Assembly (NCBI GenBank): GCA_016218545.1
Contig: JACRDQ010000020.1
Location: forward strand, 34,455-98,454
Direction: 5' to 3'
Source of the DNA: Elusimicrobiota bacterium
GTDB taxonomy: Bacteria; Elusimicrobiota; Elusimicrobia; UBA1565; UBA9628
DNA: 64,000 nt
The position numbers and the translations under genes are program-made. Positions 2 to 17,803 of this stretch are shown here, one piece after another; the first letter of the stretch is position 1; each line of letters opens with the position of its first letter. Below the pieces are notes generated by a model. The model saw nothing but the letters and a program-made list of their open reading frames with translations, did not search any database and was not told where the DNA came from.

Positions 2-2269
2 CTGTCCGAGCCCGAGTTCCGGGGCCTGGTGCGGGCCGCCAAGGAGCTCCGGGCAGGAGCCGCCTTCTTCACGCACCCGCTGTTCCGCAGGCAGCGCCTC
101 CTCCTGGCCGGGAAGGTGCCGGGCCTGGAGACCGCGGTCTGGACCGGCGGCCTGCTCCTGGCCCGGGACCTCATGGCCAGGCTGGGCCTGCCGCTCGGCC
201 CGGAGGGCTTCCATCACGAGGACGTGCTCACGGACCCGGAGGCTGCGGCGGACTACCGGTGGGAGCCGGGCAACGCGGCAGCCTCGGCCCCGGGACACGA
301 CGTGGTCTATCTCTACACCGGCTCGGACTGCGCCTACCGGCGGCCGGTGGCAGGCAACCCCTGCTACGCCGGAGTATCGCTGCCTCCCTCGGCCCACGCC
401 TTCGGCTGCGCCTTCTGCGGGGACCGCCAGGACCGGCCGGCGCCGGGGCCGACCGTGTCCGCCGCGTGGATCGAGAAGCAGATCCGGGACCTCACCGCGG
501 GCCGCAGGCCGGGCCAGCGGCCCGCCGCCCTGGTCCTGCCCGACGTAGGAGACGCGGAGCTCCTGGCCAAGACCATGGCCAGCATGCGCCGCCGCGGCAT
601 GGGCAAGACCCCCCTGCTCATGGGCGTGCGTCTCGACCGCCTGCTCCGGGTCAGGCCGGCGCTCGAGGATCTCCTGGCCGGCATGAGCAAGGGCGAGTCC
701 ATCCACTGCGTCACGGTCGGAGCGGAGAACTTCGCGGCGGACGAACTCCGGCGCTTCAACAAGGGCTTCGAGCCCTTGACCGTGGTCCGCGGGATCAACC
801 TCCTCAAGGAGCTGGAGGCCTCGCAAGGCGGCAGGTTCCTCTATTCCGGGTACAAGCCCCTAGCCGTCATCCTGCTGACCCCTTGGACGCGGCCCTGCGA
901 CCTGGCCTACAACCTCCGCCTCATCCGGCACTTCAAGCTCGAGGACGAGGCAGGCAACCTCTTCAGCTCGCGCCTCCGCCTGCACCCGGAGCTGCCCATC
1001 ACCTCCCTGGCCGCCAAGGACGGTCTCCTGGGCAGGACGCCGGACCGCGCCCTGGCCATGGCCAGGCGCAGGCTGGAGCGTTCCGAGCGCGGCTGGCGCT
1101 TCAAGGACCCGCGCATGGAGCCGGTCAACAGCCTGGCCGGCCGGCTCGAGCGCAGTCCCTCCCTGGCCGGAGACCGCCTCTACGAGGATATCCAGAAAGG
1201 CCTGGCCTGGACCGAACGCGACAAGGGCCAACTGACGGACATCCTCTTGGCCTCGGCCAGGCTCGCTGACTCCTCCCCAAAGCCCATCCCCGCAGAGAAG
1301 CTCTTCGAGTCCAGCCTGGCGGCCTGGCGCGCCGGGCCGGCACCCCTGCTCCCCGGCAAGCGCCTGGGCCTCGAGCTCCTGGGACCTGCGGAGTACGTGG
1401 AGCGCTGCCTGGCCCTGGTCCATCAGGGACCCAGAGCCGCCTTGTCCCTGGAAGGCCTGCCTCCGGCCGCCGAGCTCAAGGGCCTGGCAAGGACCGGCCC
1501 TGGCCTACACGCCAAGGTGGTGGAGCGAGGCCCGGCCTCCACGCTCTACGCGGCCCGCGACGCCAAGACCTTGGAGCGCCTCATCCGCCTGGAGAGCGGG
1601 CCCAAGGCCAAGCAGGCTCGAGCCTCGACCATCAGCGAGCTCGGGAAGCTCTACGGCTACCCCTCATGCTGCGTCCGGGCCTGGCTGAAGAACCCCTGGC
1701 GCCAAGGAGGCTTCAGCGAATGGCTGGCGCTCCTGACCCGCGCAGCTTCTCCGGGCCCGTGCCCTGGCCTGCACCTGCCCCTCCTGGTCTCGGACTTGGC
1801 TTTCATCCCCTGCTCCGCCCAGTGCCGGGCCGCTGAGGCTGCCTGCCGGTCCTGGTTCAAGGCCCTGGGAGGCTCCCTGACCGCGAAGGCCCTGTCCGAC
1901 AGGGTCTTCGTGCACTCCCTGCTGGACCGGGCGGACGGCGCCTCCTTCATCCCCGGGTCGAGGCAAGGAAGGGTCATCCGCTACGACCCCTCGAGCGTCA
2001 CCGGCACTGAGGGCGGTGTGGCCGCGTGGCTCAGGAAAGGGGACCGGCTCGAGCAAGACTGCGGCCAGGTCTCGGTCTTCAGGGGCGAGAAGGCCCTGCG
2101 GCGCTGGGTCGCGGAAGCCGCGGTCTGGGACAGACAGGCCATGGCGGACCCTGAGTTCTGGGTCGAGCTCGCAGCCGCGGCCCTGAGACGCTCAGGGCCG
2201 GCCGGCGTCCGCCAACCGCGCCTCAAGCATGCTCACCAGGCCGGTCAGCAGCTTCTTCTCAGCCTCTGA
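2..2269 (+). CDS. Large uncharacterized protein with C-x10-C-x13/14-C-x2-C-G motif, possibly a non-canonical Fe-S or radical-SAM-like enzyme. 5' end is outside the window. Paralogue of the convergent gene at 2192-4240.
   Basis: Frame is open from the window edge and reads as a real protein. Carries motif SDCAYRRPVAGNPCYAGVSLPPSAHAFGCAFCG and a shared TPWT motif. Clear paralogy with the next gene. Overlaps the convergent gene end by about 78 bp. Confidence 0.5.
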   Translation: MSEPEFRGLVRAAKELRAGAAFFTHPLFRRQRLLLAGKVPGLETAVWTGGLLLARDLMARLGLPLGPEGFHHEDVLTDPEAAADYRWEPGNAAASAPGHDVVYLYTGSDCAYRRPVAGNPCYAGVSLPPSAHAFGCAFCGDRQDRPAPGPTVSAAWIEKQIRDLTAGRRPGQRPAALVLPDVGDAELLAKTMASMRRRGMGKTPLLMGVRLDRLLRVRPALEDLLAGMSKGESIHCVTVGAENFAADELRRFNKGFEPLTVVRGINLLKELEASQGGRFLYSGYKPLAVILLTPWTRPCDLAYNLRLIRHFKLEDEAGNLFSSRLRLHPELPITSLAAKDGLLGRTPDRALAMARRRLERSERGWRFKDPRMEPVNSLAGRLERSPSLAGDRLYEDIQKGLAWTERDKGQLTDILLASARLADSSPKPIPAEKLFESSLAAWRAGPAPLLPGKRLGLELLGPAEYVERCLALVHQGPRAALSLEGLPPAAELKGLARTGPGLHAKVVERGPASTLYAARDAKTLERLIRLESGPKAKQARASTISELGKLYGYPSCCVRAWLKNPWRQGGFSEWLALLTRAASPGPCPGLHLPLLVSDLAFIPCSAQCRAAEAACRSWFKALGGSLTAKALSDRVFVHSLLDRADGASFIPGSRQGRVIRYDPSSVTGTEGGVAAWLRKGDRLEQDCGQVSVFRGEKALRRWVAEAAVWDRQAMADPEFWVELAAAALRRSGPAGVRQPRLKHAHQAGQQLLLSL

Positions 2270-4240
2270 CCACACCGGGGTCTGGGCCAGGTACACGGCC
2301 TTGAACCTCCGCGTCTCGAAGAAGCAGGGCCCCTGGCTCTGCCGCTCCTTGAGGTCGAGCACGATCCTCCTGTCGTCCAGCAGGACGTTCAGGCGGAATG
2401 CGCGGCCAGGACACCCGCGGAAGGACGCGGCTGACACCGACTCGAGCTCGAGCTTGGCCGCGACCTTCAGCTCTTTGCGGACCTGCGCCACTGCGCGCTG
2501 TTCAGCGGAGGACGGCTTGGAGAGGACCGGAGGATTGTCCTCCCCTGCCAAGGGCTCGGGAGCGCCGGCATGCGCTCTTTTGACCCGCGCCACAGCCTCG
2601 GCCAGGAGGCCCGTCCTCGACCACGTCTCCTGAGCGCGCTCGAAGAGCTCCAGGAGCTCCAGAGCCGCCTCGAGGATGCTCCACGGAGGCCTGGTCGTGC
2701 GGCCTGAGCACGCTTCATCCCGGAACACGCTCGACAAGAGGTCGTATTCCGGGTCTCCGCGGAACAGGGTTCGCGCCTCGGGACACTCCATGGCGACATA
2801 GAGCCGGACGAGGATGCGGAAGAAGTCCGCGACCTTGCGGTCCTTGAACCGCCAGGGCATGGAGCTCCACAGCACCTGGAGACCGAAGCATGGATAGAAG
2901 AGGAGCCCCGGGTCCTCGTACTCGGGGAGGATGACGCCGCCCTCGTGCTCCGCCAGAGCGGCCAGGGCGGTCCCTTTACGGAGCATCAGGCTCGTGCAGA
3001 GCCACAGCCCGTTGCCGTCGAACCCGCGGCGGCCGGCCTCCCGGAGGTTCACGCGGAGTTCCGCGAGCGTGGTCCACGGGGTGAACAGGAGCATCAGCCA
3101 GTTCCTGCCGTCCCCCCGCGCCTGGAAAGCCTTCGGCCAGCGCCGGCTCCAGCCCGCCATGAGCCTGAAGACCTCGTCCACCTGGGCGATGGAGATGTCC
3201 TTGTTGTAGAGCCTCATGACCGCTGGAGAGAAGTTCTCGATGCCCATGACCTCGAAGCTCATCCGGTGCCCGGCTGCCGCGGCCTTGGGCAGGACCGCCG
3301 AAATGCGGCTCCGGGATGAGAGGACGTCGTCGATGCGCGGGCAGAAGACGAACCGGGCCGGCCTCAGGCCGATGCGCAGCACCATGTCGAAGAAGAGGTC
3401 GATGCGATGGAAGAGGCCGAGGTCGTAGACGATGTAGGCGCCCCGGCTCCTGGATTGCCGAGGCCCTCCCCGTGACGCGGCCTTGAGCTGGCGCTCAGCC
3501 AAGTCCAGGGAGCCGGCCTGGTGCCCGGCCAAGGGCCCGGTCTCGATGGAGCCCCCGCAGAAGCTGCACCCGGGAGGAAGGTCCGGCGCGCCCACCACTC
3601 CCCTGAAGCAGGGGTTCTTGGCGGGAGAGGGCCTGCCCCTGCAGCTGCGGCCTCCCAGGATGATCACCGGAGGGCCGTCCTCGGCCTTGGCCATGGCGCC
3701 CACGGGCGCGGCGCGGTAGTCGGGCTCCACCGCGTCGAGGACGGACCTGCCCTCCCCTGGATGCGGACCCGCTCCCAGCCACCTGGAGAACCAGCCGGGC
3801 TCATGGGTGAGTTCCCGCCCCTCGCCCTTGCCCCTGACCAGCCTGAGGTAGGGGTCGAGCTCCGGGTCGTGCTCGCCCCACCGGAGAGCCTCCATGTCGA
3901 ACTCGCAGGGAAGGACCATGAAGCGCCGCGCTCCAGAGGCGCGGACCGCGGACCGGACCCCCGGGACGAGGAGCTCGTTGGAGACCACGTGCGTGGGTCG
4001 GAAGGCCTTCAGCCTCCTCTTGAGGACCTCGAGGTCCCCCCTCTCCAGGCCGGCCCGGAGCACGCGGCCGAGCGGCCGCTCCCACGCGATGCCGGTCCTG
4101 GCCTTGAAGAAGAGCCACTGGGCCGGCACGCCGCAGTCCCGCGCCACCCCCTTGAAGAACGGATAGAACATGGAGGTCTCGCGCCGGTCATCCATGCTCG
4201 AGAGGAACTCCAACAGCAGCAAGCGGGGGTTCGGACTCAC
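2192..4240 (-). CDS. Large uncharacterized protein with C-x10-C-x13-C-x2-C-GG motif, paralogue of ORF 2-2269.
   Basis: 682-aa ORF. Motif RSCRGRPSPAKNPCFRGVVGAPDLPPGCSFCGG and an LLFTPWT motif are shared with gene 1. GTG start at 4240 lies 5 nt after the upstream stop, with an alternative ATG at 4195. Same-strand operon with the genes at 4246-7965. Confidence 0.55.
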   Translation of the reverse strand: MSPNPRLLLLEFLSSMDDRRETSMFYPFFKGVARDCGVPAQWLFFKARTGIAWERPLGRVLRAGLERGDLEVLKRRLKAFRPTHVVSNELLVPGVRSAVRASGARRFMVLPCEFDMEALRWGEHDPELDPYLRLVRGKGEGRELTHEPGWFSRWLGAGPHPGEGRSVLDAVEPDYRAAPVGAMAKAEDGPPVIILGGRSCRGRPSPAKNPCFRGVVGAPDLPPGCSFCGGSIETGPLAGHQAGSLDLAERQLKAASRGGPRQSRSRGAYIVYDLGLFHRIDLFFDMVLRIGLRPARFVFCPRIDDVLSSRSRISAVLPKAAAAGHRMSFEVMGIENFSPAVMRLYNKDISIAQVDEVFRLMAGWSRRWPKAFQARGDGRNWLMLLFTPWTTLAELRVNLREAGRRGFDGNGLWLCTSLMLRKGTALAALAEHEGGVILPEYEDPGLLFYPCFGLQVLWSSMPWRFKDRKVADFFRILVRLYVAMECPEARTLFRGDPEYDLLSSVFRDEACSGRTTRPPWSILEAALELLELFERAQETWSRTGLLAEAVARVKRAHAGAPEPLAGEDNPPVLSKPSSAEQRAVAQVRKELKVAAKLELESVSAASFRGCPGRAFRLNVLLDDRRIVLDLKERQSQGPCFFETRRFKAVYLAQTPVWSEAEKKLLTGLVSMLEARLADAGRP

Positions 4241-4245
4241 GGGCT

Positions 4246-6879
4246 TCAGTCCGGCATGGCCTCAGGGAAGAGGCCGGCCATGCGCGTGAAAAAGGCGGAG
4301 CAGAGCCTCCCCATCCTCATCTGGCTCTCGAAGATCGCGGCAGCCTCGGGCCTGCGGGACGCGGCTCTCCTCATGCTCTCGATGTGCGCGTCACGGTCGC
4401 GCCTGAGTTCCTCCAGACGCCCGATCGCGGCGATCTTCCCCACCCTGTTGACCTTCTTCATCTCGGGCAGGACCTTCTCCACGGGCAGGGTGCACCCGAT
4501 GTACACGGACCCGTCCGTGTCCACGGTCAGGCCGCGCGAGGCGAGGAGGGGCTCGTCTGCGGTGTTGGTGAGGTTGGCCAGGCCCATGCGCCGGCCCGAG
4601 GCCCGGAGCCTTCCCAGCAAACGATAGACCTCCTCGAGATAGCGGCGGCCGGCCTCCCCGGTCCAGAGCCCCCCGACCTCGTAGAGCAGGTCTAGCTCCC
4701 TTACCCCGAGCTCCGCGAGGTACATGCCGTTGTCGCTCAGGCGCCCCACGCCTGCGGGCCGCACGACCATGCTGGCCTGCACGTGCCAGCCCGATCTCAG
4801 GGCCCGCTGGAGGTTGGCGAGGAGCTTGCGGTAAGGATAGGACACGCCGGAGTCACGCAGGGGCCGATACTCGCCCTGGGTCAGGCGGTCGCCGTCGATG
4901 CTGAAGATGACGCGGACCTCATGCTTCCTGAGGAAGTCGAGGGTCTCGGCGTCCAGCAGGAGGCCGTTGGTGGCCACGGAGCAGAACGCCTGCCTGCCGA
5001 ATTCCAGGGCCCTGGCCCTCACCTGGTCCGCCGCCTCAGCCACGAGGTCGCGGCGGAGCAGGGGCTCCCCGCCGAAGAGCTGGATGTCCACGCTCGGGCC
5101 CGGCCCGTCGATCATGAGGTCGATGGCGCGGCGCAGGACCTCCCGGGACATGTCCGGACCCCGCCGGACGAGCTGGCAGTAGCGGCACCCCATCTGGCAG
5201 CGCCGGGTGAGCATGGGCATGAGACTGCGCAGGGAAGGGAACGCCCCGGCCGCGCCCGCGTGCCTGGACTCGGGCGAGCGCAGGGTCCCTCCCTGGCTCT
5301 GCGGCCGAAGGTCGCGGCAGAAGCGGTCCTCCGAAGCTCCCTTCGCGCCCTTCCCGAAGAAGACCCCGTAGCGCTCGCAGGGGAGGCAGGCCTTGTGCAG
5401 GGTCCGGAACGAGGGCCGCCGCCCCTCGCGCAGGTCCGCGGCCATATCGAGGAGGAACGGCGAAGGCGGCCGCACGCACGCGTTCTCCGCCCGGCCCAGC
5501 TTCATGAGCGCCTCGATCTCCGGCCCGGAGAGGTGCTTCGAGGAGGTCACCACCGGGGCGCCGGCCCGGTGGCTCCGGCAGTAGTCCCGGAAGGACCGGA
5601 CGGGGCTCTTGATGCCCAGGGACTTGCCCTGCAGGTGCCAGGCCGAACCCGGATCCAGGGGAATGCGCTCCATGCCGAAGTCCGCGCCGGGGAAGCGGTC
5701 CGCCAGCGAGCGGACGAGGTAGAGGGTCTTGGCCGCGTGGACCGCGGTCTCGCCCGGCAGGCCGGCCGTGAAGTTGATCTGCGGCTTGATCCCGCGGTCC
5801 ACCATCAGCCGGACCGCGGCCACGAGCGCCGCGTTGGTGAAGGATGCTCCCTTGTTGCGGCGCCGGACCTCCTCGGACCCGCACTCGGGAGCGACCGCCA
5901 GGGTCCCCCTTCCCGGGAAGGTCCTGCTGAACTCGGCGATGAACTCCTCCGTGGGCAGGCCGAAGCACTCGAAGGCGGAGGTGAGGCTCAGCTTCCTGCG
6001 GCGCATGGCCCGGAAGAGCTCCGGGTAGAACCGCCCCCCGGGCGCGGGATCGAAGTTGAAGTGGACCGTGCCGATGCCGTGGTCCGCCAGGGCCTCCAGG
6101 TCCGCGAGCACCGAATCCCGGGACGCGAAGAGCACGCCGTTCCTCTTGAAGAGCATGCGCTGTTGGGCCGCGCCGCCTCCGCAGTAGGTGCAGTCCTGGA
6201 CGCAGCCCCGGCCAGGCACGCAGAAATAGACCGGAGCCCGCTCCGCGCCGGGGTCGAAATCCGTGGACACCAGGGACAGGTAGCGCTCGTGATGCCGGAT
6301 GAGGCGGAAGTTGGTGAACCTGAGCCGGTCGAAGAGACCCTGCGTCACCGTGTAGGACTGCGGGTTGTGGACGACCTCTCCGCGCCTGCGCCAGCTGAGG
6401 TTGGACACGTACCCGAGGTCCGCTCCGGGCCGGTCCAGGGCAGCCAGGAGCACGGCCAGGGGGAGCTCGGGGTCTCCGCGCACGATGAAGTCCACCTCCG
6501 GGAAGGAGCGCATGATCTCGTCCGCGAAGAAGGTGGCGGTGAACCCGCCGAGGACCGTCCGGCAGCGCGGCGCCGCCTTCTTGACGCCGCGGGCCGCTTC
6601 GATCACGTCGTGGCTCTGGGGGTGCCAGTACAGGTCGAAAAGGGCGGCCGAGTAGCCCCCGTCAGCCACGAACGACGGCAAGTCGAAGCCCGGGTCCAGG
6701 GTCTTCTCGAGCCCGGCATGCACCACGGACACGTCCCGGCCCGTCCTGACCAGGAAGTCCGCGATGGCGGGCAGGCCCACCGGGAGGAGCTTGGTCGGTC
6801 CCTCGATGCCTCCGCCCTTGGGGACGTGGATGAAGACCGCTCTGCCTGCTCCCGCTCGCGGTCCGGCCGACTCTCTCAT
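4246..6879 (-). CDS. Didomain radical-SAM protein. N-terminal half is a B12-binding-type radical SAM (CVQDCTYC, GLPGET). C-terminal half is a second radical-SAM domain of anSME/SPASM type (CQMGCRYC, FGGEPLL).
   Basis: 877-aa ORF with two separate CX3CX2C motifs about 420 residues apart. N-terminal Rossmann-like B12 region (FIHVPKGGG...) and a C-terminal GGEPLL glycine-rich SAM-binding motif. Confidence 0.7.
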   Translation of the reverse strand: MRESAGPRAGAGRAVFIHVPKGGGIEGPTKLLPVGLPAIADFLVRTGRDVSVVHAGLEKTLDPGFDLPSFVADGGYSAALFDLYWHPQSHDVIEAARGVKKAAPRCRTVLGGFTATFFADEIMRSFPEVDFIVRGDPELPLAVLLAALDRPGADLGYVSNLSWRRRGEVVHNPQSYTVTQGLFDRLRFTNFRLIRHHERYLSLVSTDFDPGAERAPVYFCVPGRGCVQDCTYCGGGAAQQRMLFKRNGVLFASRDSVLADLEALADHGIGTVHFNFDPAPGGRFYPELFRAMRRRKLSLTSAFECFGLPTEEFIAEFSRTFPGRGTLAVAPECGSEEVRRRNKGASFTNAALVAAVRLMVDRGIKPQINFTAGLPGETAVHAAKTLYLVRSLADRFPGADFGMERIPLDPGSAWHLQGKSLGIKSPVRSFRDYCRSHRAGAPVVTSSKHLSGPEIEALMKLGRAENACVRPPSPFLLDMAADLREGRRPSFRTLHKACLPCERYGVFFGKGAKGASEDRFCRDLRPQSQGGTLRSPESRHAGAAGAFPSLRSLMPMLTRRCQMGCRYCQLVRRGPDMSREVLRRAIDLMIDGPGPSVDIQLFGGEPLLRRDLVAEAADQVRARALEFGRQAFCSVATNGLLLDAETLDFLRKHEVRVIFSIDGDRLTQGEYRPLRDSGVSYPYRKLLANLQRALRSGWHVQASMVVRPAGVGRLSDNGMYLAELGVRELDLLYEVGGLWTGEAGRRYLEEVYRLLGRLRASGRRMGLANLTNTADEPLLASRGLTVDTDGSVYIGCTLPVEKVLPEMKKVNRVGKIAAIGRLEELRRDRDAHIESMRRAASRRPEAAAIFESQMRMGRLCSAFFTRMAGLFPEAMPD

Positions 6880-6885
6880 AGGGTC

Positions 6886-7965
6886 TCAGGAGGACCCCGG
6901 CGCGGCCCGGACGCATCGCTTGGCCACGGACGCGCAGTAGTCGCAGGATTCGCAGCGCCCCTTGCAGCGCATGACCCGCGAGACGAAGCCCTTCGGGATG
7001 AGGCGGTTGTCGCACGACACCAAGCCCTTGGCGTAGACCTCCTCGTCGCTGAACAGGGTGAAGAGATTCCCGTCGAACCTGCGGTCGAAGTAGGCCGTGA
7101 GGACGCCCTTGAGCCGCTCCGAGGAGTCCTCCCTGTAAGCGACCTTGAAGACGTCGGCCAGGCCGTGCCGCTCGTAGTAGCCGAGGTCCTCGGGCCGGAT
7201 GAAGGGACGCCGGATCTCGTCAGCTCCGCGGTCGCTCTCGAAGAGGCACCGGTCATGGTCGAGCCGGCCGCCCAGAGTCTCACGCCAGCCGCGGGGAGAC
7301 CACGCCTCGAGGACCCCCCTCAGGACCCCCCAATCCGCGTGCCTCCAGGCGTAGGGGCAGCCCTGGTAGCAGCGGAGCACGCCCAGGAGCTTGACCCTCA
7401 AGCGCGGGAACGCGGCCTTGAGCCCGGCGATGTCCTTGAGCGCGGCGAAGTCCCGGTTGATCTCCGGGTCCACGCACAGGCTGGTCACCCCCAGACGCGC
7501 CGCGGCCCGAGCCTTGACCAGGGAGTTGACGCCCATGTAGATGGAGGATTGGACCGCGATCGCCGGGAACTCCTTGCGCAGGAGCGGGACCAGGGCCGGG
7601 TCCGAGACCGTGACGCAGGTCAGGCCCGCGTCCCGAGAGAGCCGCCGGACGCCTTCGAAAATGCGCCTTATGTCGTCGAAGAACAGGGGGTTCTTGTTGA
7701 GGAGGAGGTTGGTCCCGATGCCCTGGCCGCGGCAGAAGCGCGCCAGAGCCGCGACCTCCGCGTAGCGCAGGGGCTCGAGCCCGACGTAGGCAGAGGAGAA
7801 GTCGCAGCCCTGCCAGCCGCCGAAATAGACCTCGCAGACCTGCCCGGACAGGGAGGCCCAACGGACCAAGCCCAGGTCGCCGTTATAGGGGATGGAGAAG
7901 AGGATGCGGCCGTGGCCCTGCACAGGTAGAGGATAGGTTCTCCCCACCCCCCCGTCAAGGCGCAT
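6886..7965 (-). CDS. U32-peptidase-like TIM-barrel protein with C-terminal Cys cluster, a putative Fe-S enzyme.
   Basis: The ILFSIPYNGDLGL...EVYFGG stretch resembles the U32 ELLAPAG...AVYLGG core. LRCYQGC and C-terminal CKGRCESCDYC...C Cys-rich motifs are present. First gene of the minus-strand operon. Start lies only 14 bp from the divergent gene, so it may be internal. Confidence 0.4.
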   Translation of the reverse strand: MRLDGGVGRTYPLPVQGHGRILFSIPYNGDLGLVRWASLSGQVCEVYFGGWQGCDFSSAYVGLEPLRYAEVAALARFCRGQGIGTNLLLNKNPLFFDDIRRIFEGVRRLSRDAGLTCVTVSDPALVPLLRKEFPAIAVQSSIYMGVNSLVKARAAARLGVTSLCVDPEINRDFAALKDIAGLKAAFPRLRVKLLGVLRCYQGCPYAWRHADWGVLRGVLEAWSPRGWRETLGGRLDHDRCLFESDRGADEIRRPFIRPEDLGYYERHGLADVFKVAYREDSSERLKGVLTAYFDRRFDGNLFTLFSDEEVYAKGLVSCDNRLIPKGFVSRVMRCKGRCESCDYCASVAKRCVRAAPGSS

Positions 7966-7979
7966 GCTATCATATCGCC

Positions 7980-10302: not shown

Positions 10303-11851
10303 GGCTTCCTTGTCCGACAGGCAGACCCAGAGCCGGCCGCACGCCGCGGAACAGCCGCTCGCTCTCCCCTGGCTTGAGGAGGTCCGCCGCGTCCAGGGTG
10401 AGGAAATGGCGGTCCCGCGGAGGACGCGCCCGGAAGCGGAGCCAGGCGAGGTCCAGCGCCTTGGAGGCTCCCGGGTCGAGCCGGGACACGAGGTCCGAGA
10501 AGACGGAGGTCACGGACCCGCGGCCTTGAGCGGCGAGCTCCCGCATCCTGGCCCCGGTCTCTCCGTGGTTGACGAGCAGGTAGACCTGCAGGGTCAGGCG
10601 CTGGAGAGCTTCGAGCTCCCTGCCGGGCAGGGTGCTCGTGGCCAGGACGAAATAGGGGGGCCGGGCCATCTTCTCCGTCACCTCGGGCTGTCCCGCCAGG
10701 CGAGAGCCCGGCAGGGCCTGGCAGGCGAACACGAGCAAGCGGACACTGGGCACGGCCAGCACCGCGTCGAGGCCCTTCAGATAGCTCTGCCGGGTCTCGC
10801 CCGGAAGCCCGCAGATGAGGTTCAGGAGGATTTCGGCCTTGGGCCGCCTGCCTGCCAGGCCGGCCAAGGCGGCATCAAGGGCTTTGCGGACAGGGCCGCG
10901 GCCCGCCAGGCGCAAGGCCCGGGAAGACAGGGATTCCACGCCCACGGTCAGCTCGAAGCAGGGGTGGTCGAAGACGTCTAGCACCGCAGGGGTCAGGCGG
11001 CGCAAGCCCGCCTCGAGGACCCACCTGGGCCCGCCTTCGACCCGACAAGAGCGCATGAAGCGGCCCAAGCGCAAGGCCCTGGGAGTGTCCAGGAAGAAGT
11101 CCGAATCGGCAAGGAAGACCCGCTCCAAGGACATGCGGGAAGCCAGCCTGATCTCGCGCCTGACCCTCGTCTCCGGGAACCAGCTCACCTGCCTGCGGCT
11201 GGCCCACGCGCAGTAGCTGCACTTCATGGGACAGCCTCGCGCGTTCTCGATGGCCGCCGACGTGCCCGGCTCAGGGACCCCCTGGAACACGGCCTCGCTC
11301 CAGGCTGAGGGAAGGCTCCCGAGGCGTTCGACGAAGACCCCCGCGGGCCCCTGGCAGGGCCTGCCGTCCCGGAGCGTCACCGTGCCCGGCGTGCCGGCCC
11401 AAGCCTCGCCCGTGAGGCTGCGGCCCAGGAGTTCGACCCAGGCTGACTCGCCCTCGCCGAAGACCAGGGCATCGGCCCCCGCGCGCAGGAAGAGGTCCTC
11501 CCTGCCCGCTGCGACCTCAGGTCCGCCCACCGCGACCCGGACCGAGGCCAGGCGCTTCTTGAGGCCGGCGACCAGGGCCAGGACCGGCTCGGTGTTCCAG
11601 ACATAGCAGGACAGGCCCACGACCCGCGGCCCGTAGGCCGCGACCTCCTTGAGCACGCGGCCGGGGAAGCCCTCGGAGGTCCCGGGCTGGCAGCGGAAGG
11701 TCCGGCACTCGAGCCTGCGGCCGAAGGTCCGGCTGGTCAAGGCCTGCAAGCCTCCCACGGCAAGAGGAAGGTAGCGGCCCTCCGCGGTCGCGTCGGAAAC
11801 GCTGATCAAGGCCGCCCTGGGAGGGCGCGCTCGGCTCATCGGAGCTATCAT
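10295..11851 (-). CDS. B12-binding-domain radical-SAM protein.
   Basis: N-terminal B12-binding-like region (VGLSCYVWNTEPV...VAVGGPEV), canonical GCPMKCSYC motif and a downstream GLPGET motif. 518 aa. Confidence 0.7.
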   Translation of the reverse strand: MIAPMSRARPPRAALISVSDATAEGRYLPLAVGGLQALTSRTFGRRLECRTFRCQPGTSEGFPGRVLKEVAAYGPRVVGLSCYVWNTEPVLALVAGLKKRLASVRVAVGGPEVAAGREDLFLRAGADALVFGEGESAWVELLGRSLTGEAWAGTPGTVTLRDGRPCQGPAGVFVERLGSLPSAWSEAVFQGVPEPGTSAAIENARGCPMKCSYCAWASRRQVSWFPETRVRREIRLASRMSLERVFLADSDFFLDTPRALRLGRFMRSCRVEGGPRWVLEAGLRRLTPAVLDVFDHPCFELTVGVESLSSRALRLAGRGPVRKALDAALAGLAGRRPKAEILLNLICGLPGETRQSYLKGLDAVLAVPSVRLLVFACQALPGSRLAGQPEVTEKMARPPYFVLATSTLPGRELEALQRLTLQVYLLVNHGETGARMRELAAQGRGSVTSVFSDLVSRLDPGASKALDLAWLRFRARPPRDRHFLTLDAADLLKPGESERLFRGVRPALGLPVGQGSRG

Positions 11852-11868
11852 ACAATAAGGACGCGTCC

Positions 11869-11897
11869 TTGACGCCCCTGGGACAAAGACTTATACT
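11869..11897 (+). promoter_or_regulatory. Sigma70-like promoter (TTGACG-17 nt-TATACT) for the B12 radical-SAM gene at 11909. Near-leaderless.
   Basis: Hexamers at 11869-11874 and 11892-11897 with a 17-nt spacer. The ATG lies about 5 nt after the predicted TSS. A GGACGCGTCC palindrome abuts the -35. Confidence 0.4.
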
Positions 11898-11908
11898 GGG
11901 CGCATTCC

Positions 11909-13516
11909 ATGCGGCGCCTCGACTGCGTCCTGTTCTTCCCCCCTCCAGGCGCCCAGTTCCAGGTCCCTGAGATCGGCCTCCCCCAGCTGACCTCATTCCT
12001 AAGAACGCAGGGAGCCGCGTGCGAAGCCGTGGACCTCAATCGGACCTTCATGGAGGACTACCTCTTCGGCCGGCAGGACCAGGTCCGGGAGCGCGTGGCC
12101 CGCAGGCTCGGCCGGGCCAAGGGCCGCCCGCTCCTGAAGGTCCTCGACGCCGAGGATTTCCTCTCCCTGGATTTCTCCAAGACGGCCAACCACTCCTACA
12201 GCTTCATCGCCGACGACGCGGCCGAGCTCTGGAACGAGCTCCTGGCGGTCAACGCGGACCGCTACGACATCGCGGACGTCGTCCGGAGCGCGAAGCGCGG
12301 CGACGCCCTTTTCGACCCTTTCTACCGGGAGCATGTCCGGCCTTGGGCCCGGCGGACCGGGCTCGTGGGGTTCTCGGTCGAGACCAGCCACCAGCTCGCC
12401 TCGGCCCTCCACTTCTCCAAGAGGATCAAGGCGGACCGGCCCGGGACCAAGGTCGTGCTCGGCGGGACCTGGTTCATCTGCACGCGCCCTTTCCTGAAGC
12501 CCTTCAGCGCCGTCTTCGACTTCGCGGACTTCGTGGTGCCGGTCGAGGGCGAGCGGCCCCTGCTGGACCTCATCAGGCTCCTGCGCAAGACGCCCTCCCC
12601 CGCAGACGCGGAGCTGCGGCGGGTGGCCGGGCTCGTCCTGCGCTCAGGAGACCGGCTCGTAGACACCGGCGACCCGAAGCCCGTGCCCATGGCCAGCCTG
12701 TCCGCGGGGGATTTCGCGCACTTCAAGCCCGGCCGCTTCATCGGGAGCCAATACCCCGTGCTCAGCACCAAGGGCTGCTACTGGAACCGCTGCCGGTTCT
12801 GCTTCCACTCCTACGCCGGCGTGGAGACGCGCTCCAAGACGGCCGGGCAAGTCCTCAGGGAGATGAAGCAGGTCGTGTCCCGCTACCGGCCCAAGGAGAT
12901 CGAGCTCGCGGACTCCGCTGTCCCGCTCTCCCTGCTCAAGAGCCTCCCCGCAGGGATGCGGCGGCAGGGACTGAAGGTGCCTTGGACGGCTCTCGTGCGC
13001 GCGGACGAAGGCCTCACCCGGCAGGACCTTGGACGCCTCAAGGCCTCGGGCTGCCTGAACCTGGGCATCGGGCTGGAGTCCGCGGACCCCGCGGTCCTGC
13101 GCCGCTCCGACAAGGGCATCCGCTTGGAGGTCCTGGACCGGCTCCTCGACGAGGCCTCCCAGGTCGGGCTGAGGGTTTCCCTCTTCCTGATCTACTTCCC
13201 CTTCGAGGATCGGCGCTCCTACGAACGCAGCTGGCGGTACGTGCTGGACCGGCGGGACAAGATCGCGGATGTCTCGGCCCAATACCTTTTCCTGGGCAGG
13301 AACAGCCGCCTCTTCGCTGAGCCGGGCCGGTGGGGCTTGAGGCTCGCCAAGGGCTTCGAGCAGGACACCCGCTCGTTCTGGCTCCCCTACTCCTGCCGCG
13401 GAGCCCTGTCCAAGGCCGAGTTCTACGCCTTGACCTCCGAGAAGTTCCGCCTGTTCTACGAGCGGTCTGAGCGCGGGCTCGCGCTCAGCTCGGCTCCCGC
13501 CGCAGCTTGTCCTTGA
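11909..13516 (+). CDS. B12-binding-domain radical-SAM protein with variant CX4CX2C motif.
   Basis: 535-aa ORF. Motif KGCYWNRCRFC. N-terminal Rossmann-like region (KVVLGGTWF). Diverges from the previous radical-SAM gene across a 57-bp spacer carrying a sigma70-like promoter. Confidence 0.65.
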   Translation: MRRLDCVLFFPPPGAQFQVPEIGLPQLTSFLRTQGAACEAVDLNRTFMEDYLFGRQDQVRERVARRLGRAKGRPLLKVLDAEDFLSLDFSKTANHSYSFIADDAAELWNELLAVNADRYDIADVVRSAKRGDALFDPFYREHVRPWARRTGLVGFSVETSHQLASALHFSKRIKADRPGTKVVLGGTWFICTRPFLKPFSAVFDFADFVVPVEGERPLLDLIRLLRKTPSPADAELRRVAGLVLRSGDRLVDTGDPKPVPMASLSAGDFAHFKPGRFIGSQYPVLSTKGCYWNRCRFCFHSYAGVETRSKTAGQVLREMKQVVSRYRPKEIELADSAVPLSLLKSLPAGMRRQGLKVPWTALVRADEGLTRQDLGRLKASGCLNLGIGLESADPAVLRRSDKGIRLEVLDRLLDEASQVGLRVSLFLIYFPFEDRRSYERSWRYVLDRRDKIADVSAQYLFLGRNSRLFAEPGRWGLRLAKGFEQDTRSFWLPYSCRGALSKAEFYALTSEKFRLFYERSERGLALSSAPAAACP

Positions 13517-14705
13517 GGACTTCCAGGTCCACGCCGTCGGAAAGCTCCGGATGGCTCAGCGCCCATCGATGGAACGACGCCGTGCCATCGGCCTTCTCAG
13601 GGCTATGGGACCAGCGGTCGAGGAGCGCCTGCTCTTCCTTGGTGATGGCCCACCATGCCGCGGGCCGCAGGCCCTCGGTCGGCCAGGCAGCAGGAGGCGG
13701 CACGGGCGGCAGGTCCCAGACCTCCTCTCCCTCCACGCGGGGCAGCGGCTCGACCGGAGAGCCCGGAGCGGGACGCGCGATCAGGGGAAGAGACGAGCCC
13801 TTGCCCGGGATGGCGGACGCGCTGAAAGACGGGGCGCCGTGCTGGGGCGTGGCCTTGAAAAGGGAGGAACGGGGCTCCGGTATCTGCCGCTCCGGCTGGC
13901 TGATGACCACTGCCTTGTCCTGGTCCAGGCTGGGGACCTCGACGCTGGACTCGGGAGGCCCGCCGGACAAGGAGCGGCGCCTGGACGCGATCCCGAAACC
14001 CAGAGCGACAGCAAAGCCCGTGGCAGCGAAGGCCAGCACGAAGAAGCCGGCATCAGGGCCCTGGCCGCTCTCCAGCGGCCCGCCGGCAGGCCGGTCAGCC
14101 AGGCTGGGAGTGGAGGCCTGCCCAGGCGAGAGCCGGCCCGGCTTGGCGAGCTGCGTGCCGAAGTCTCCGCCGCGGCCTTTTCCTTGGCCGACGCCTGAGC
14201 CCAGACGCAGGGCCAGTTCAGCGGGCAGGGATTGCGAGCCCTCCACGAAACGCTTGAACTCGTCCGGAGAGGCCGCGGCCCGCGACACGTCCTGGATGCC
14301 CGACATCCTGGGGTCGAGCTCGATGCGCGAGCCCAGGAGCCGCACCAGGGCTTCCCGGTCGGCAGAGGACTGCTCGAGCGCTGCCGTGCCGGGACCGCCG
14401 AGCCCGCCGTCCTGGAGCTGTTTGGACAGGGACCCTCCTTGGCGGATGCGCTCCAGACGCTCGTCAGCGGACAGGAGCGACCAGCTGGCCTCGGTCTCGA
14501 ACTTGGTCCCGAGGTCGGCGGGGACTCGGCCTTCAGCGCTCAGCCTGGCCAGCCAGCGCTGGAGGTCGAAATAGTCCCGGTGCTGGGGATTGTCCCACCG
14601 CATGGGGTCCGGGGCCGACAACGCCTCAGGGGCAGCGGAAACGGGGAGCGCCGCTGTCAGCGACGACAGCGCGGCCGCCAGGAGCATCGGGAATAGGGGA
14701 CCCAT
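13485..14705 (-). CDS. Hypothetical secreted or membrane protein with signal peptide and one internal TM helix.
   Basis: N-terminal MGPLFPMLLAAALSSLTAALPVSA signal-like segment and an internal hydrophobic helix AGFFVLAFAATGFAVALGFGIA. Competing plus-strand ORFs are Ser/Arg-rich artefacts. Confidence 0.45.
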   Translation of the reverse strand: MGPLFPMLLAAALSSLTAALPVSAAPEALSAPDPMRWDNPQHRDYFDLQRWLARLSAEGRVPADLGTKFETEASWSLLSADERLERIRQGGSLSKQLQDGGLGGPGTAALEQSSADREALVRLLGSRIELDPRMSGIQDVSRAAASPDEFKRFVEGSQSLPAELALRLGSGVGQGKGRGGDFGTQLAKPGRLSPGQASTPSLADRPAGGPLESGQGPDAGFFVLAFAATGFAVALGFGIASRRRSLSGGPPESSVEVPSLDQDKAVVISQPERQIPEPRSSLFKATPQHGAPSFSASAIPGKGSSLPLIARPAPGSPVEPLPRVEGEEVWDLPPVPPPAAWPTEGLRPAAWWAITKEEQALLDRWSHSPEKADGTASFHRWALSHPELSDGVDLEVLKDKLRREPS

Positions 14706-14783
14706 GGCAACGGCCTTCGTTCATCTGAAGTGTAGACCCGGAACCGGTCATTGTCAAGTCTTTTATATAATAACTCCATCAAG

Positions 14784-16163
14784 ATGAAACCCATCTCGAT
14801 CTCTACCGAGCCCGCGACCTTCCGGAGCCTCCGGACCCTGGCCCCGAGCGCGCGCTCAAGCCTCATCCGCAGGATCGAGGACGCGGCCACGAAACGCGCG
14901 TTCCATTACAAGGGCAGGCACGCGCATCCCATGGGCTTGGCGCCCATGGTCTCCACCAAGGGCCTGGTCCGGACCATCACGGCCCTGGTCCGCATCCTCC
15001 ATCGTTTCCAGACAAGGGCTCCGGACCTGCGGCTGGGGGACGTCCAGGGCTTCAGGGAGCTCATCCGTCTCGAGAAAGGCACCCGCCGGTGGTTCGACGC
15101 CACGGCCAGGCTCGTGCCCAAGCCCTGGCCCCTGCTCATGAGGCCGGACTTCTGCCTGGGGGAGCGGGCCGGGGTCCTGCGGCCCGTGCTCTTCGAGCTC
15201 AACTCCCTCATGCTGGGCGGGCTCTACATCCAGTCCGTGGCGCGCAGTCTCATGACCAAGGAGGTCCTGCCCGCGGTCGCGGGCAGCCGGCCCAAGCCGG
15301 GCTTCAAGCCCACCACGGACCTCATCGCCTACTTCATGCGCTGGATGCGGGACTGCCGCGCCAGGCACGGCCGCGGGCCCGGCGGGCTCGCCCTGCTGGA
15401 GAGCCTGCCCCCGGGCGGAGGCTTCAGCGAGCTGCCCCGAATCGCCCACGACATGGCGGCCGAGGGCTGGCGGGTGGAGCATGGGGACCCCAAGGAGCTC
15501 GAGCTCCGCAAGGGCCGGGTCCGGCTCCACGGCATGCCCGTGGCCTATGCCTACCGCGACTTCTCCTTCGAGGACGTGAGCGGCCCGGCGAGCCCGAGCA
15601 TGGCGGGCTTCGCCGCCCTTTGGGCCGCGGGCAGGGTGGCTCCGGGATTCGCGGCCGACTTCGACCAGAAAGGCATCCTGGAGTGCTTCACCTCGGAGGA
15701 CTTCGCCCCGCTCTTCACCGCGCAGGAGCGCCGCTTGCTGGCCCGGCACGTGCCGTGGACCAGGGTGCTGACCGAGCGCAGGACCCTCTCGCCGGAGGGC
15801 CGGAGCGTGGATCTGCCGGCGTACGTGCTGCGGCGCCAGGCTGAGCTGGTCCTCAAGCCTTCCTGGGGCGCCGGAGGCGAGGGCATCCTCATCGGCCGGC
15901 ACACCCCGGCGTCCGAGTGGCGCTCGGCCGTGTCCCGAGCCCTCAAGGACCCCGGCTCCTTCGCGGTCCAGGCCTATGTTGACAATCCCCCGATCGCGTG
16001 CGCCTTCCTCAGGGACGGCAGGATGCGGTTCGAGGAGTGCCGCCAGACCCTCGGGACCTTCTTCGACGGCTCCAGGTTCGGCTTCCATCTCCGGGTAAGC
16101 CCCGGCCACATCGTCAATGTCGCGCAGGGAGGGGCACTGGCCCCCCTCTACATCCCCAGATGA
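14784..16163 (+). CDS. ATP-grasp superfamily protein, glutathionylspermidine-synthase or circularly-permuted ATP-grasp-like.
   Basis: VLKPSWGAGGEGILIG motif, typical of the ATP-grasp nucleotide-binding loop. ATG at 14784 follows an AT-rich TATAAT-containing region. The track's TTG start at 14751 is probably an artefact. Confidence 0.5.
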   Translation: MKPISISTEPATFRSLRTLAPSARSSLIRRIEDAATKRAFHYKGRHAHPMGLAPMVSTKGLVRTITALVRILHRFQTRAPDLRLGDVQGFRELIRLEKGTRRWFDATARLVPKPWPLLMRPDFCLGERAGVLRPVLFELNSLMLGGLYIQSVARSLMTKEVLPAVAGSRPKPGFKPTTDLIAYFMRWMRDCRARHGRGPGGLALLESLPPGGGFSELPRIAHDMAAEGWRVEHGDPKELELRKGRVRLHGMPVAYAYRDFSFEDVSGPASPSMAGFAALWAAGRVAPGFAADFDQKGILECFTSEDFAPLFTAQERRLLARHVPWTRVLTERRTLSPEGRSVDLPAYVLRRQAELVLKPSWGAGGEGILIGRHTPASEWRSAVSRALKDPGSFAVQAYVDNPPIACAFLRDGRMRFEECRQTLGTFFDGSRFGFHLRVSPGHIVNVAQGGALAPLYIPR

Positions 16164-17803
16164 CCAGCGGAGGCAGCATGCCCGAAGGCCCGAGACTCGA
16201 AGTCGCCAACCTCTGGGGGTCCCCCCGCGAGCGCGGCCGACAGATGGGAGAGCTCTTCGGACACCGCGTGCGCGAGAGCGGCATCGTGGACTTCTACCAC
16301 GACTACTGCAGCCGGCACATGCCCCGGCACCCGGTCGTGGCCGGGCTGGGCACCAGGCTCATGCTCTCCCTGGTCGCTCTGCGCTTCTCAGCCAGCGCCA
16401 AGGCCCTCATCCAGGGCTTCTGCGAGACCTCCGGCCTCGACCCGGGACGGGTCAGCCGCGGCTTCGTCATGCCCGACGTCCTCAACTTCCTCGTGGGCTT
16501 CTCCGGCCGGCTCGCCGGCCTGCCGACTTTGGGCTGCACCTCTGCCGCGGCCTGGGGCGACTACACCCGGGGCGGGAAGTACCTCTTCGCCCGCAACCTC
16601 GATTTCCCGGGCATGGGCTACTTCGACCGCTTCCCGGTGGTCTGCCGCCACAAGCCGGACCACGGCATCCCCTACGTGTCCGTGGGCACGGCCGGCCTCG
16701 TGGTGGACGGCATCACGGGCGTCAATGCCGAGGGCCTCATCGTGGCCCTGCACCAGCACATCTCGCGGGACGTCTCCATCCTGACCGGAGGCCGGCCCAT
16801 CCTCGACCTCGGCCGCCAGGTCCTGGAGGGCTGCGGGAACCTCCGCGATGCGGTGGACATGGTCTCGCGCTGGCGCACCACCAGCTGTTGGACCGTGATC
16901 CTCGGCAGCAGCAAGGAGCGCAAGGCCTGCGCGGTGGAGCGCTCCCCCGGCGCCTGCTGCCCGGTCTGGTCCGACACGGGCAAGCTCGGCCGGGCCAACG
17001 ACTTCGTCACCCCGCGCCTCCACGCCGGCGAGATCGACTACCGCCCCTGGCGCGAGTCCAGCCGCCTGCGGATCGGGCGGGTCGACGACCTGCTGGAGTC
17101 CCGAAAGGGGAGCCTTGAGCCCGCGTTCATGGCGTCGCTCCTCTCCGACCGCTACGACTCCGAGCGGGGCACCTTCAGGTCCTTCGCCCAGTCCATCGGC
17201 CAGGTCCACAACATGACCAGCGTGGTCTTCGAGCCCGACGAGGGCCGCCTCTGGGTCTCCGAGAGCCGCGCTCCGGCGCACCAGGGCCCCTACCGCCGTC
17301 TCAACCTCTGGGACGAGAGCCCGCTGGGAGAGCCGCTCGCCGGCGTGGTCGAAGGCCTGCCCCAGCCGAGGCGCGCGTCGCTGGCGACCTACGTGCGGTC
17401 CATCATGGATTGGCAGGCTCGCCGCAGCCCCTCCGAGATGCTTGAGGACCTCCACGAGGCCATGGAGGGGGACCCCGAGGAGCCCGTGTACCGCTACCTC
17501 CACGGCTTCTTCGCCATGAAGGCCGGCCTCTACGAGACCGCGGTGGAGGATTTCGCGGCCGGGTCGGCCATGAAGGACATCCCCCAGCGCCAGTCCGCCC
17601 AGAAGCTCTGGCACGCCAGGGCCCTGGACCTCCTCGAGCGCAGGCCCGAGGCCGTCGAGCGCTACAGCGAGCTCTGCAGGGCCTCGGACCTCTGGCCCGT
17701 GCTGCGCCGCGCCGCGCTCCACGGGGTCTCGCGCTCCTTCACCAAGCGCAGCCTGGCCCGCTGCTCGCCCGACTTCTTCTACGGCGACGTCTTCCCGTAC
17801 TGA
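16160..17803 (+). CDS. Peptidase C45 family Ntn-hydrolase, acyl-CoA:6-aminopenicillanic-acid acyltransferase-like.
   Basis: PTLGCTSAAAWGDYTRGGKYLFARNLDFP matches the C45 Gly-Cys autoproteolytic site and oxyanion region. The ATG at 16160 overlaps the upstream TGA as ATGA, which indicates translational coupling. Confidence 0.55.
   Translation: MTSGGSMPEGPRLEVANLWGSPRERGRQMGELFGHRVRESGIVDFYHDYCSRHMPRHPVVAGLGTRLMLSLVALRFSASAKALIQGFCETSGLDPGRVSRGFVMPDVLNFLVGFSGRLAGLPTLGCTSAAAWGDYTRGGKYLFARNLDFPGMGYFDRFPVVCRHKPDHGIPYVSVGTAGLVVDGITGVNAEGLIVALHQHISRDVSILTGGRPILDLGRQVLEGCGNLRDAVDMVSRWRTTSCWTVILGSSKERKACAVERSPGACCPVWSDTGKLGRANDFVTPRLHAGEIDYRPWRESSRLRIGRVDDLLESRKGSLEPAFMASLLSDRYDSERGTFRSFAQSIGQVHNMTSVVFEPDEGRLWVSESRAPAHQGPYRRLNLWDESPLGEPLAGVVEGLPQPRRASLATYVRSIMDWQARRSPSEMLEDLHEAMEGDPEEPVYRYLHGFFAMKAGLYETAVEDFAAGSAMKDIPQRQSAQKLWHARALDLLERRPEAVERYSELCRASDLWPVLRRAALHGVSRSFTKRSLARCSPDFFYGDVFPY

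Follow-up and report, generated by a model that had tools for sequence, protein, structure and literature searches.

A dense island of radical SAM enzymes in a groundwater Elusimicrobium and its probable kinship with the suites found beside Group VI nitrogenase-like genes

The 64-kb window analysed here, the whole stretch from position 34,455 to 98,454 of Elusimicrobiota contig JACRDQ010000020.1, opens with eight genes (g1-g8, bases 2-13516) that form a real and unusually dense 13.5-kb island of oxygen-sensitive, anaerobic radical S-adenosylmethionine (SAM) enzymes with no named pathway. Two of the encoded proteins, g1 and g2, represent an unnamed family with a predicted radical SAM fold, and by gene adjacency and gene fusion this family belongs to the accessory set associated with the Group VI nitrogenase-like (Nfl) genes. 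Our preferred reading, to which we give a probability of about 0.55, is that the island is a radical SAM suite kin to those accompanying NflHDK in Elusimicrobia and Myxococcota, lacking Nfl genes within the 64 kb, and that it tailors a non-ribosomal small molecule. An earlier annotation made from the sequence (the original prediction) had proposed an undescribed tailoring cluster of 17.8 kb ending at ahcY. Its view that the genes match no named pathway was borne out, and no protein of the island reaches an NCBIfam equivalog cut-off (for example those of MoaA, QueE, HpnR, BchE and PapB).

The g1/g2 family and its link to Nfl genes

Genes g1 (2-2269, + strand; GC at third codon positions, GC3, 0.90) and g2 (2192-4240, - strand, 682 aa) encode two large paralogues with a non-canonical cysteine motif, just as the original prediction had described them. 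Gene g1 is cut at its 5' end by the window edge, and its full length of 814 aa was read from an independent assembly of the same DNA. The motif is CX25CX2C in g1 (C110, C136 and C139 in the window translation), which matches all invariant columns of alignment A1 including C...GCxFC, and CX24CX2C in g2, where C200, G224, C225, F227 and C228 were invariant in an alignment of 25-27 homologues. Further conserved in that alignment were G333-x-E335, N346-K347 and T387-P-W-T390 (g2 numbering). The C-terminal part of g1 contains a DUF483-like 'GYPSCC' region (DUF483, 25.6 bits), and a search of the literature for DUF483 found no paper clarifying this domain.

Neither protein matches Pfam Radical_SAM or any NCBIfam model, and it is by fold that they can be placed. 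The predicted architecture is class-B-like, with an N-terminal Rossmann fold resembling a B12-binding domain and a radical SAM-type barrel, and structurally both are closest to class B and methylthiotransferase (MTTase)-type radical SAM enzymes, not to NifB. In the wider family, Pfam Radical_SAM was recognised in three distant relatives. When the family alignment was compared by hhalign with g7 and g8 of the island, the sole match was short, not significant and confined to the GxE...NK motif. Among 1.84 billion cluster representatives, a profile search retrieved 947 with E<=1e-3, of which 585 reached E<=1e-30, and the matches mostly span the full length. This makes it a sizeable, unnamed family of some 600-950 clusters (50% identity). 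A count of radical SAM genes based on Pfam would probably miss it. Other members are fused to canonical radical SAM or radical SAM/SPASM cores, or are tandemly duplicated. These fusions of the g2 family to radical SAM cores, together with the fusion found in g3 of the island itself, suggest a common substrate for these enzyme types.

The link between this family and nitrogenase-like genes, which the original prediction had missed, came from a search anchored on g2. This gave 79 loci from GTDB species genomes, with 10-kb flanks, that were searched by tblastn with the window proteins and with NflH, NflD and NflK. Nfl genes were present within 10 kb in 10 of the 16 loci with close g1/g2 homologues and in 11 of the 27 with intermediate ones (21 of the 43 loci at >=100 bits), and in 13 loci a g1/g2-family gene was within 300 bp of an Nfl gene. 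One locus (L013) contains a g1 orthologue (48.5% identity) that adjoins NflDK. The association extends to a natural fusion, P0022, a protein of 1114 aa in which a g2-family part (residues 2-553) is joined to an NflD part (residues 552-1104). The locus holding this fusion (L003, JACPFR010000045.1), from an Elusimicrobia MAG, shows the Group VI system amplified to an extreme degree, with five NflD/K-like pairs, three NflH (NifH-like) genes and five radical SAM genes in a 23-kb stretch.

Among the 79 loci, the order g1-g2-g3 is repeated only in L010, which comes from the sister metagenome-assembled genome (MAG), the closest relative. Homologues of g6, g9, g10 and g11 were absent from all 79, and g4-like sequence was limited to a weak match (81 bits) in L046.

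Group VI paralogues of nitrogenase have been described from groundwater Elusimicrobia of lineages IV and V, from Gracilibacteria and from Myxococcales (Méheust et al. 2020, ISME J; bioRxiv 10.1101/765248). Suites of radical SAM genes were noted beside them in the same work, and the authors proposed the reduction of a tetrapyrrole to give a new cofactor. The spread of the g1/g2 family over Elusimicrobia and Myxococcota agrees with that taxonomic range. A review of July 2026 (Chem Rev) lists Group VI under 'unknown cofactor synthesis', one of the branches of the nitrogenase superfamily that have no assigned reaction, and points out that these genomes are without NifB. Our literature search found no paper characterising a Group VI Nfl system. 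The word 'undescribed' in the original prediction was therefore too strong, given that similar suites had been reported in 2020, although they were still uncharacterised in 2026. The island resembles the published suites in phylum, in habitat and in its mix of enzymes (many radical SAM proteins, some B12-binding and some HemN-like). It differs from them in having no NflH, NflD or NflK within 64 kb, and its U32 protein, its probably inactive adenylase and its fusion of a B12-type to a second radical SAM unit are not mentioned in the main text of Méheust et al.

Partner enzymes in the island

GC content is 66-73% across the whole window and 69-72% in the island region. With such high GC the raw list of open reading frames (ORFs) is full of spurious frames, and coding frames were therefore chosen by third-position GC. 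Eleven genes (g1-g11) and ahcY were called in this way in bases 2-19183. An identical gene set was called in the independent Logan assembly (L001, 15.9 kb, run SRR12113407), which also supplies the N-terminus of g1 and about 180 bp further upstream, the tail of an unrelated gene. The g2 protein is 100% identical to HY924_06005 of an Elusimicrobia MAG at NCBI. The host is very likely an uncultured groundwater Elusimicrobium, and the related loci bear 'NC_groundwater' isolate names.

The packing of the genes is unusually tight and leaves nearly no space for promoters. Convergent gene ends overlap by 78 bp (2192-2269), 8 bp (9172-9179) and 32 bp (13485-13516), the g6 start and the g7 stop share 8 bp, and the divergent genes g4 and g5 are spaced by only 14 bp (7966-7979), or by 56 bp with the later g4 start called by NCBI. 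The original prediction had spoken of tightly coupled operons, which is only partly true. The packing is tight, but there are six strand switches in g1-g11 and the longest same-strand runs are of three genes (g4-g3-g2 and g10-g11-ahcY). Given that the largest intergenic gap is 57 bp, no precursor ORF fits between the genes, in agreement with the original prediction on this point.

We counted seven radical SAM-fold domains in six proteins (g1 and g2 by predicted fold, two in g3, g5, g7 and g8), of which only four have the canonical CX3CX2C motif. The number seven given by the original prediction thus holds for radical SAM-fold domains, and only if g8 and the non-canonical g1 and g2 are counted. 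The claim of at least seven canonical motifs in five proteins did not hold, as CX3CX2C occurs only five times, in four proteins (g3 at residues 226 and 561, g4 at 334, g5 at 25 and g7 at 207), and the one in g4 sits in the C-terminal cysteine cluster of a U32 protein, outside any radical SAM domain. Pfam Radical_SAM (PF04055) was matched above threshold by g3 (in two stretches), g5, g7 and g8, which places these four proteins in the superfamily.

Gene g3 (4246-6879, - strand, 877 aa) encodes a fusion of an N-terminal B12-binding/radical SAM unit (g3N) to a second radical SAM core of the SPASM lineage (g3C), and the B12-plus-second-radical-SAM protein of the original prediction is therefore genuine. 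Residues 31-435 match TIGR04190, the Ta0216 type, with E 9.7e-49, far below the family cut-off, and the B12-binding domain PF02310 scores 30.2 bits, just under its cut-off of 32.1. A literature search for 'Ta0216' found no paper. Residues 550-760 match radical SAM cores of SPASM-lineage peptide maturases (PapB type, E 3.3e-29, again far below cut-off), and the nearest solved structure is CteB (5wgg; E 1.3e-11). The orthologue in L010 is 76% identical. Gene g5 (7980-9179, + strand, 399 aa) encodes a stand-alone copy of the g3C-type core (Radical_SAM, 41.6 bits), with an orthologue of 69% identity in L168, the second locus of the sister MAG. None of its NCBIfam matches (PapB, HxsB, anSME, AhbD and NirJ types) comes near the respective cut-off, and it also weakly matches AhbC. 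The CX3CX2C motif of g5 begins at residue 25, too early for a leader-recognition domain to precede it.

The original prediction called two of these proteins SPASM/anSME-like. The lineage of the radical SAM cores supports this, and g5 and g3C align best with the cores of the SPASM/twitch enzymes (anSME, CteB, PapB, AhbC/AhbD, NirJ). In contrast to those enzymes, however, g5 and g3C lack the C-terminal auxiliary-cluster domain: neither g3 nor g5 matches the SPASM domain PF13186, the CX2CX5CX3C motif is found in no gene, only 3-6 scattered cysteines follow the core in either protein, and the matches of g3 and g5 to the NCBIfam maturase models stop well before the C-terminal ends of the models.

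Gene g7 (10295-11851, - strand, 518 aa) is the clearest class B member, passing the PF02310 cut-off with 48.4 bits against 32.1 and matching PF04055 with 41.1 bits. Its nearest relatives are C-methylases, namely TokK (7kdx; E 4.5e-24), CysS (3.3e-19) and the KedN5 family (2.3e-20). Gene g8 (11909-13516, + strand, 535 aa) has the CX4CX2C variant, at residue 290, that the original prediction had pointed out. It scores 39.9 bits with PF04055 but only 18.5 bits with PF02310, and 102 bits with TIGR03975 against a cut-off of 282. Of the proteins that had been called B12-type, g7 is therefore firm, g3 is just short of the domain cut-off yet well matched to TIGR04190, and g8 is weak. What the island shares with class B enzymes such as TokK, CysS, TsrM, OxsB, MgmA, KedN5 and BchE/BchQ/BchR is the B12-binding Rossmann domain joined to a radical SAM barrel, clear in g7, weaker in g3N and g8, and seen in g1 and g2 by fold. 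The differences are that no curated family cut-off is reached, and that CX24/25CX2C in g1 and g2 and CX4CX2C in g8 replace CX3CX2C.

Gene g4 (6886-7965, - strand; 359 aa, or 345 aa in the NCBI call) encodes, as had been proposed, a U32-like, putative Fe-S protein, with a predicted TIM-barrel fold. The Pfam match is just below threshold (PF01136, 18.5 bits against 22.4), but most homologues of g4 in the match list carry PF01136 and a family profile of 20 members matches the U32 structure 5d88 (Mk0906) with E 5.6e-6. An AlphaFold2 model of g4 (pLDDT 86.8) had the same structure as its best Foldseek match (E 2.5e-9, TMt 0.66). C199, C203, H209 and C240 are kept in the family alignment and C78 is nearly invariant, and there is in addition a C-terminal CX3CX2CX2C. 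Characterised U32 proteins (UbiU/V, RlhA and TrhP) are prephenate-dependent anaerobic hydroxylases (PMC10990095, PMC6747719, PMC5727448, PMC6599085). As judged from the sequence and the model, g4 appears to share with these proteins and with Mk0906 the TIM-barrel fold and a cysteine set suited to an Fe-S cluster. It differs from the hydroxylases in its sub-threshold Pfam score and in the extra, invariant C-terminal CX3CX2CX2C. In addition, some g4-type genes lie inside radical SAM clusters and not in quinone or RNA-modification operons.

This last point came from a search anchored on g4, which gave 80 metagenome loci. The g4-type genes are often directly beside g5-like and g3N-like radical SAM genes, and a three-gene set of a U32 Fe-S protein, a SPASM-less radical SAM protein and a Ta0216-type B12-radical SAM protein is recurrent, also in unrelated anaerobes. 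Two of the loci, L106 (35% GC) and L111 (64% GC), have five or six radical SAM genes each around the U32 gene. None of the 80 contains g9, g10, g11 or Nfl genes, and g1 or g2 is likewise absent save for a weak g1 match (57 bits) in L106. Matches to g6 were only two, both weak (49 bits each, in L130 and L131).

In the metagenome locus L090 (Ga0265596_1000364, 6005-17047, 34% GC), giant ORFs of 936, 733 and 1293 aa in the standard code surround a g4-type U32 gene. By tblastn, the 936-aa ORF contains two g5-like radical SAM cores and the 1293-aa ORF two or three, and these ORFs resemble multi-radical-SAM fusions.

Gene g6 (9172-10302, - strand, 376 aa) was correctly described as a degenerate adenylate-forming enzyme. 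It is a homologue of the ANL superfamily, matching PF00501 with 118.8 bits in two stretches, of which the second alone is reported and ends at profile position 382 of 384. The P-loop (A3), the YGxTE (A5) and the TGD (A7) motifs are all missing, the AMP-binding C-terminal domain is not reported, and the protein stops just past the A7 region. Its L168 orthologue is as short. By these motifs g6 is very probably not an active member of the superfamily to which it is homologous, and it would probably be a pseudo-enzyme or a binding module.

Limits of the island and its neighbourhood

The original prediction had included g9, g10 and g11 in the cluster and ended it at ahcY. Gene g9 (13485-14705, - strand, 406 aa), the first gene beyond the island, encodes a protein with no cysteine, a signal-peptide-like N-terminus, one hydrophobic segment and no family match. 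The product of g10 (14751-16163, + strand, 470 aa) had been called an ATP-grasp protein, but it scores only 17.4 bits with CP_ATPgrasp_2 (PF14403) against a cut-off of 32, and a minority of its homologues carry PF14403. On these scores it might at best be a distant relative of the circularly permuted ATP-grasp-like proteins. The product of g11 (16160-17803, + strand, 547 aa) is, as predicted, a C45 Ntn protein, matching the C45 proenzyme model NF040521 with 146.7 bits against 85, with the site 'LG|CTSAAAW' at Cys126 and a helical tail. The housekeeping adenosylhomocysteinase gene ahcY (17849-19183, + strand, 444 aa) follows (TIGR00936, 649.7 bits).

A search anchored on g10 found g9-g10-g11-ahcY-Lon in the same order in two other groundwater Elusimicrobia MAGs (L169 and L170), with identities of 40-48% for g9, 70% for g10, 75-78% for g11, 90-94% for ahcY and 70-75% for Lon. 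In L169 the genes upstream of g9 are unrelated, a cyclase and a methyltransferase among them, and radical SAM genes are lacking there. The original prediction had named co-localisation in relatives as a check, and this was found in the sister MAG, in which L010 has the order g3-g2-g1 and L168 the order g10-g9-g6-g5-g4, with 49-81% identity. In L168, otherwise syntenic, g6 and g9 are neighbours without g7 and g8 between them, and no small gene was called in this locus. From the synteny in L169 and L170 and from the sister MAG without g7 and g8, we conclude that g1-g8 are a variable insertion beside a conserved backbone, with g7-g8 as a further variable pair. Genes g9-g11 and ahcY are that conserved chromosomal backbone; they adjoin the island by chance and are not members of it.

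The g10-g11 pair is conserved in close relatives. We considered whether it is a widely conserved pair and rejected this, because distant g10 homologues precede an FA_hydroxylase or an MbnB/TglH gene and not a C45 gene. In a Rokubacteria contig (L174, JACPYD010000087.1, 2054-5482), a g10 homologue of 40% identity is followed by a gene of the MbnB/TglH/ChrH family (DUF692) and a 263-aa unknown gene. The context of g10 there resembles that of peptides made on the ribosome and modified after translation (RiPPs), in contrast to the C45 partner found in Elusimicrobia.

On the other side of ahcY is a second variable insertion (19256-23767), composed of a histidine kinase gene with SBP_bac_3 and GAF domains (19256-21361, - strand) and g14 (21446-23767, + strand, 773 aa), and located between ahcY and a creatininase-Lon pair. 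Both genes are missing from L170, and L169 retains a 48-aa ORF matching the last 54 residues of g14. The g14 protein is a HemN/HutW-like (class C) radical SAM protein fused to TPR repeats; Radical_SAM was matched with 67.2 bits and TPR matches were found, with the STM4012, HutW, HemZ and HemN types all below cut-off. Nfl loci and g4-type loci both contain g14 homologues, and g14 may be a satellite of the enzyme suite of the island. The pair that follows (23757-28197) consists of a creatininase-family gene (287 aa), with a weak MftE-like match, and a gene for a Lon-like protease (1194 aa) with a long N-terminal extension. The pair is kept in L170, and L169 keeps Lon.

Further along the window, a 1170-aa ORF (35981-39493) has a strong coding signal (GC3 0.93) and no Pfam match at E<=1e-4. 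The gene hemC, for porphobilinogen deaminase (55102-56115, - strand), is 40 kb from the island and close to a further B12-binding radical SAM gene with a Radical_SAM_N2 domain (56446-57759, + strand), a location relevant to tetrapyrrole supply. Scans for tRNA genes and for Rfam families at gathering threshold found none in the whole 64 kb, and hence no cobalamin or SAM riboswitch near the B12-type radical SAM genes.

Possible substrate and competing explanations

From folds, motifs and relatives, we infer the following roles and substrate for the island proteins. The island would encode a strictly anaerobic, SAM-dependent and probably cobalamin-dependent multi-enzyme tailoring line. The class B units (g3N, g7 and g8, perhaps also g1 and g2) would methylate or alkylate, or else rearrange, unactivated carbons, and the SPASM-less cores g3C and g5 would carry out radical hydrogen abstraction. 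By analogy with UbiU/V, RlhA and TrhP, g4 might hydroxylate without O2, and g6, as a probably inactive enzyme, would probably serve as a binding or scaffold subunit.

For the substrate, a tetrapyrrole-type cofactor is our leading guess. Anaerobic tailoring of tetrapyrroles has precedents in the same radical SAM classes, with BchE, BchQ and BchR of the B12 type, AhbC, AhbD and NirJ of the SPASM lineage, and HemN and HutW of the HemN type. To these precedents are added the weak matches of g5 to AhbD, AhbC and NirJ, the presence of hemC in the window and the Nfl link. Perhaps g1 and g2 belong to an unrecognised radical SAM family that partners Group VI reductases and SPASM-lineage cores, as the repeated fusions indicate, and the island is part of an anaerobic route in groundwater bacteria to a new, heavily alkylated, hydroxylated or reduced cofactor or pigment, most likely a tetrapyrrole derivative. 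This more specific proposal is tentative, and we think it possible without expecting it to be right.

Several observations weigh against our preferred reading, that of an Nfl-kin suite acting on a non-ribosomal small molecule, and against the tetrapyrrole in particular. Homologues of NflH, NflD and NflK were absent from the 64-kb window (tblastn with the L003 queries, E<=1e-5), and the 180 bp upstream of g1 belong to an unrelated gene, so that the island is tied to Nfl genes solely through the family to which g1 and g2 belong. Outside the sister MAG, the nearest g2 homologues (about 50% identity) are in contexts unlike the island, and the similarity of g3, g5, g7 and g8 to the radical SAM genes of Nfl loci is only at the level of paralogues (about 60-140 bits). 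Orthologues of g4 with 41-45% identity are also found in neighbourhoods of the housekeeping or RNA-modification type. The best NCBIfam matches of g5 and g3C are to peptide maturases and not to AhbD or NirJ, and those of g8 are to RiPP C-methyltransferases. As for the tetrapyrrole, the published proposal is no more than a conjecture.

These maturase matches invite the reading, one of those raised by the original prediction, that the island is a RiPP or proteusin-like maturation system whose radical SAM enzymes would cross-link, epimerise and C-methylate a ribosomal precursor encoded elsewhere in the genome. The top NCBIfam models for g5 and g3C are PapB, HxsB, nif11 and SCIFF, the best model for g8 (TIGR03975) is named 'RiPP maturation rSAM C-methyltransferase', CteB is the nearest solved structure to g3C, and a distant g10 homologue adjoins an MbnB/TglH-family gene in L174. 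The polytheonamide (Poy) system, a proteusin pathway, has several B12-radical SAM C-methyltransferases and a radical SAM epimerase, and the island is like such clusters in having several B12-type and other radical SAM genes side by side. However, the maturase matches are all far below the curated cut-offs, there is no SPASM domain or motif and no PqqD/RRE match, and the cluster motif of g5 is too close to its N-terminus for leader recognition. No precursor was found in the gaps of the island or among the called genes of L010 and L168, and neither was a nitrile-hydratase-like or Nif11 leader gene, a protease, a transporter or an exporter found in the island. We therefore regard this explanation as unlikely. 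Tailoring of a lipid or an isoprenoid quinone under anoxia, in which the U32 protein would hydroxylate and the B12-type or HemN-like radical SAM proteins would C-methylate or cross-link chains or rings, is in our judgement quite unlikely. It would account for the U32 fold and the conserved cysteine set of g4, for which UbiU/V is a precedent (PMC6747719, PMC10990095), for the weak matches of g7 and g8 to the HpnR, HpnJ and ladderane-type family of lipid B12-radical SAM proteins, and for the HemN-like g14 nearby. Those lipid-type matches nevertheless score below the ones to secondary-metabolism methylases, genes for a prenyltransferase, ACP, Fab or polyprenyl proteins or a UbiT-like carrier are absent from the island, and the Nfl association would be left unexplained.

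It is improbable that g1 and g2 are NifB-like synthases or maturases of a metallocluster for NflDK and that the island builds or inserts a metal cofactor. Natural NifN-B fusions offer a comparison for the joining of a g2-family half to NflD, but the best structural matches of g1 and g2 are to other types of radical SAM enzymes, the window has no NflDK to mature, and B12-type methylases and a U32 protein would have no role in cluster assembly. The single pathway of the original prediction, from g1 to g11 and ending at ahcY, with radical SAM chemistry, ATP-grasp ligation and C45 acyl transfer combined, is largely refuted. Although the genes are contiguous and the g6 orthologue in L168 is only 11 bp after g9 on the same strand, this is outweighed by the synteny of g9-g10-g11-ahcY-Lon in L169 and L170, with unrelated genes upstream of g9 in L169, by the absence of g9, g10 and g11 homologues from all 79 g2-anchored and all 80 g4-anchored loci, and by the housekeeping nature of ahcY. 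Finally, we consider it very improbable that unrelated housekeeping radical SAM genes have come together by chance. The alternating strands, the housekeeping contexts of some g4 orthologues and the dispensability of g7 and g8 in the sister genome might be taken in this sense, but no gene reaches a housekeeping equivalog cut-off, g1-g6 stay together in the sister MAG, the set of g4-type, g5-type and g3N-type genes recurs in unrelated metagenomes, and both the g2 family and g3 provide fusions between these enzyme types.

What is new in these results is the recognition of g1 and g2 as a family with a predicted radical SAM fold tied to NflD by fusion and adjacency, a compact, Nfl-free form of the suite whose eight genes could be expressed by themselves, and the recurrent set of U32, SPASM-less radical SAM and Ta0216-type B12-radical SAM proteins. 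The radical SAM partners are the main clue to the reaction of the Group VI enzymes. Identification of the product would give chemistry to several hundred orphan proteins and probably also to the Group VI reductases, and even as a pathway for a RiPP or a lipid, the island would combine enzyme types in a new way.

The g1/g2 family also has distant members, with about 27% identity over the radical SAM core, in cultured Polyangium (P. fumosum DSM 14668, P. jinanense and others; L064, L066 and L069-L071), where Nfl genes were not found within 10 kb. These isolates are possible experimental entry points to the family.

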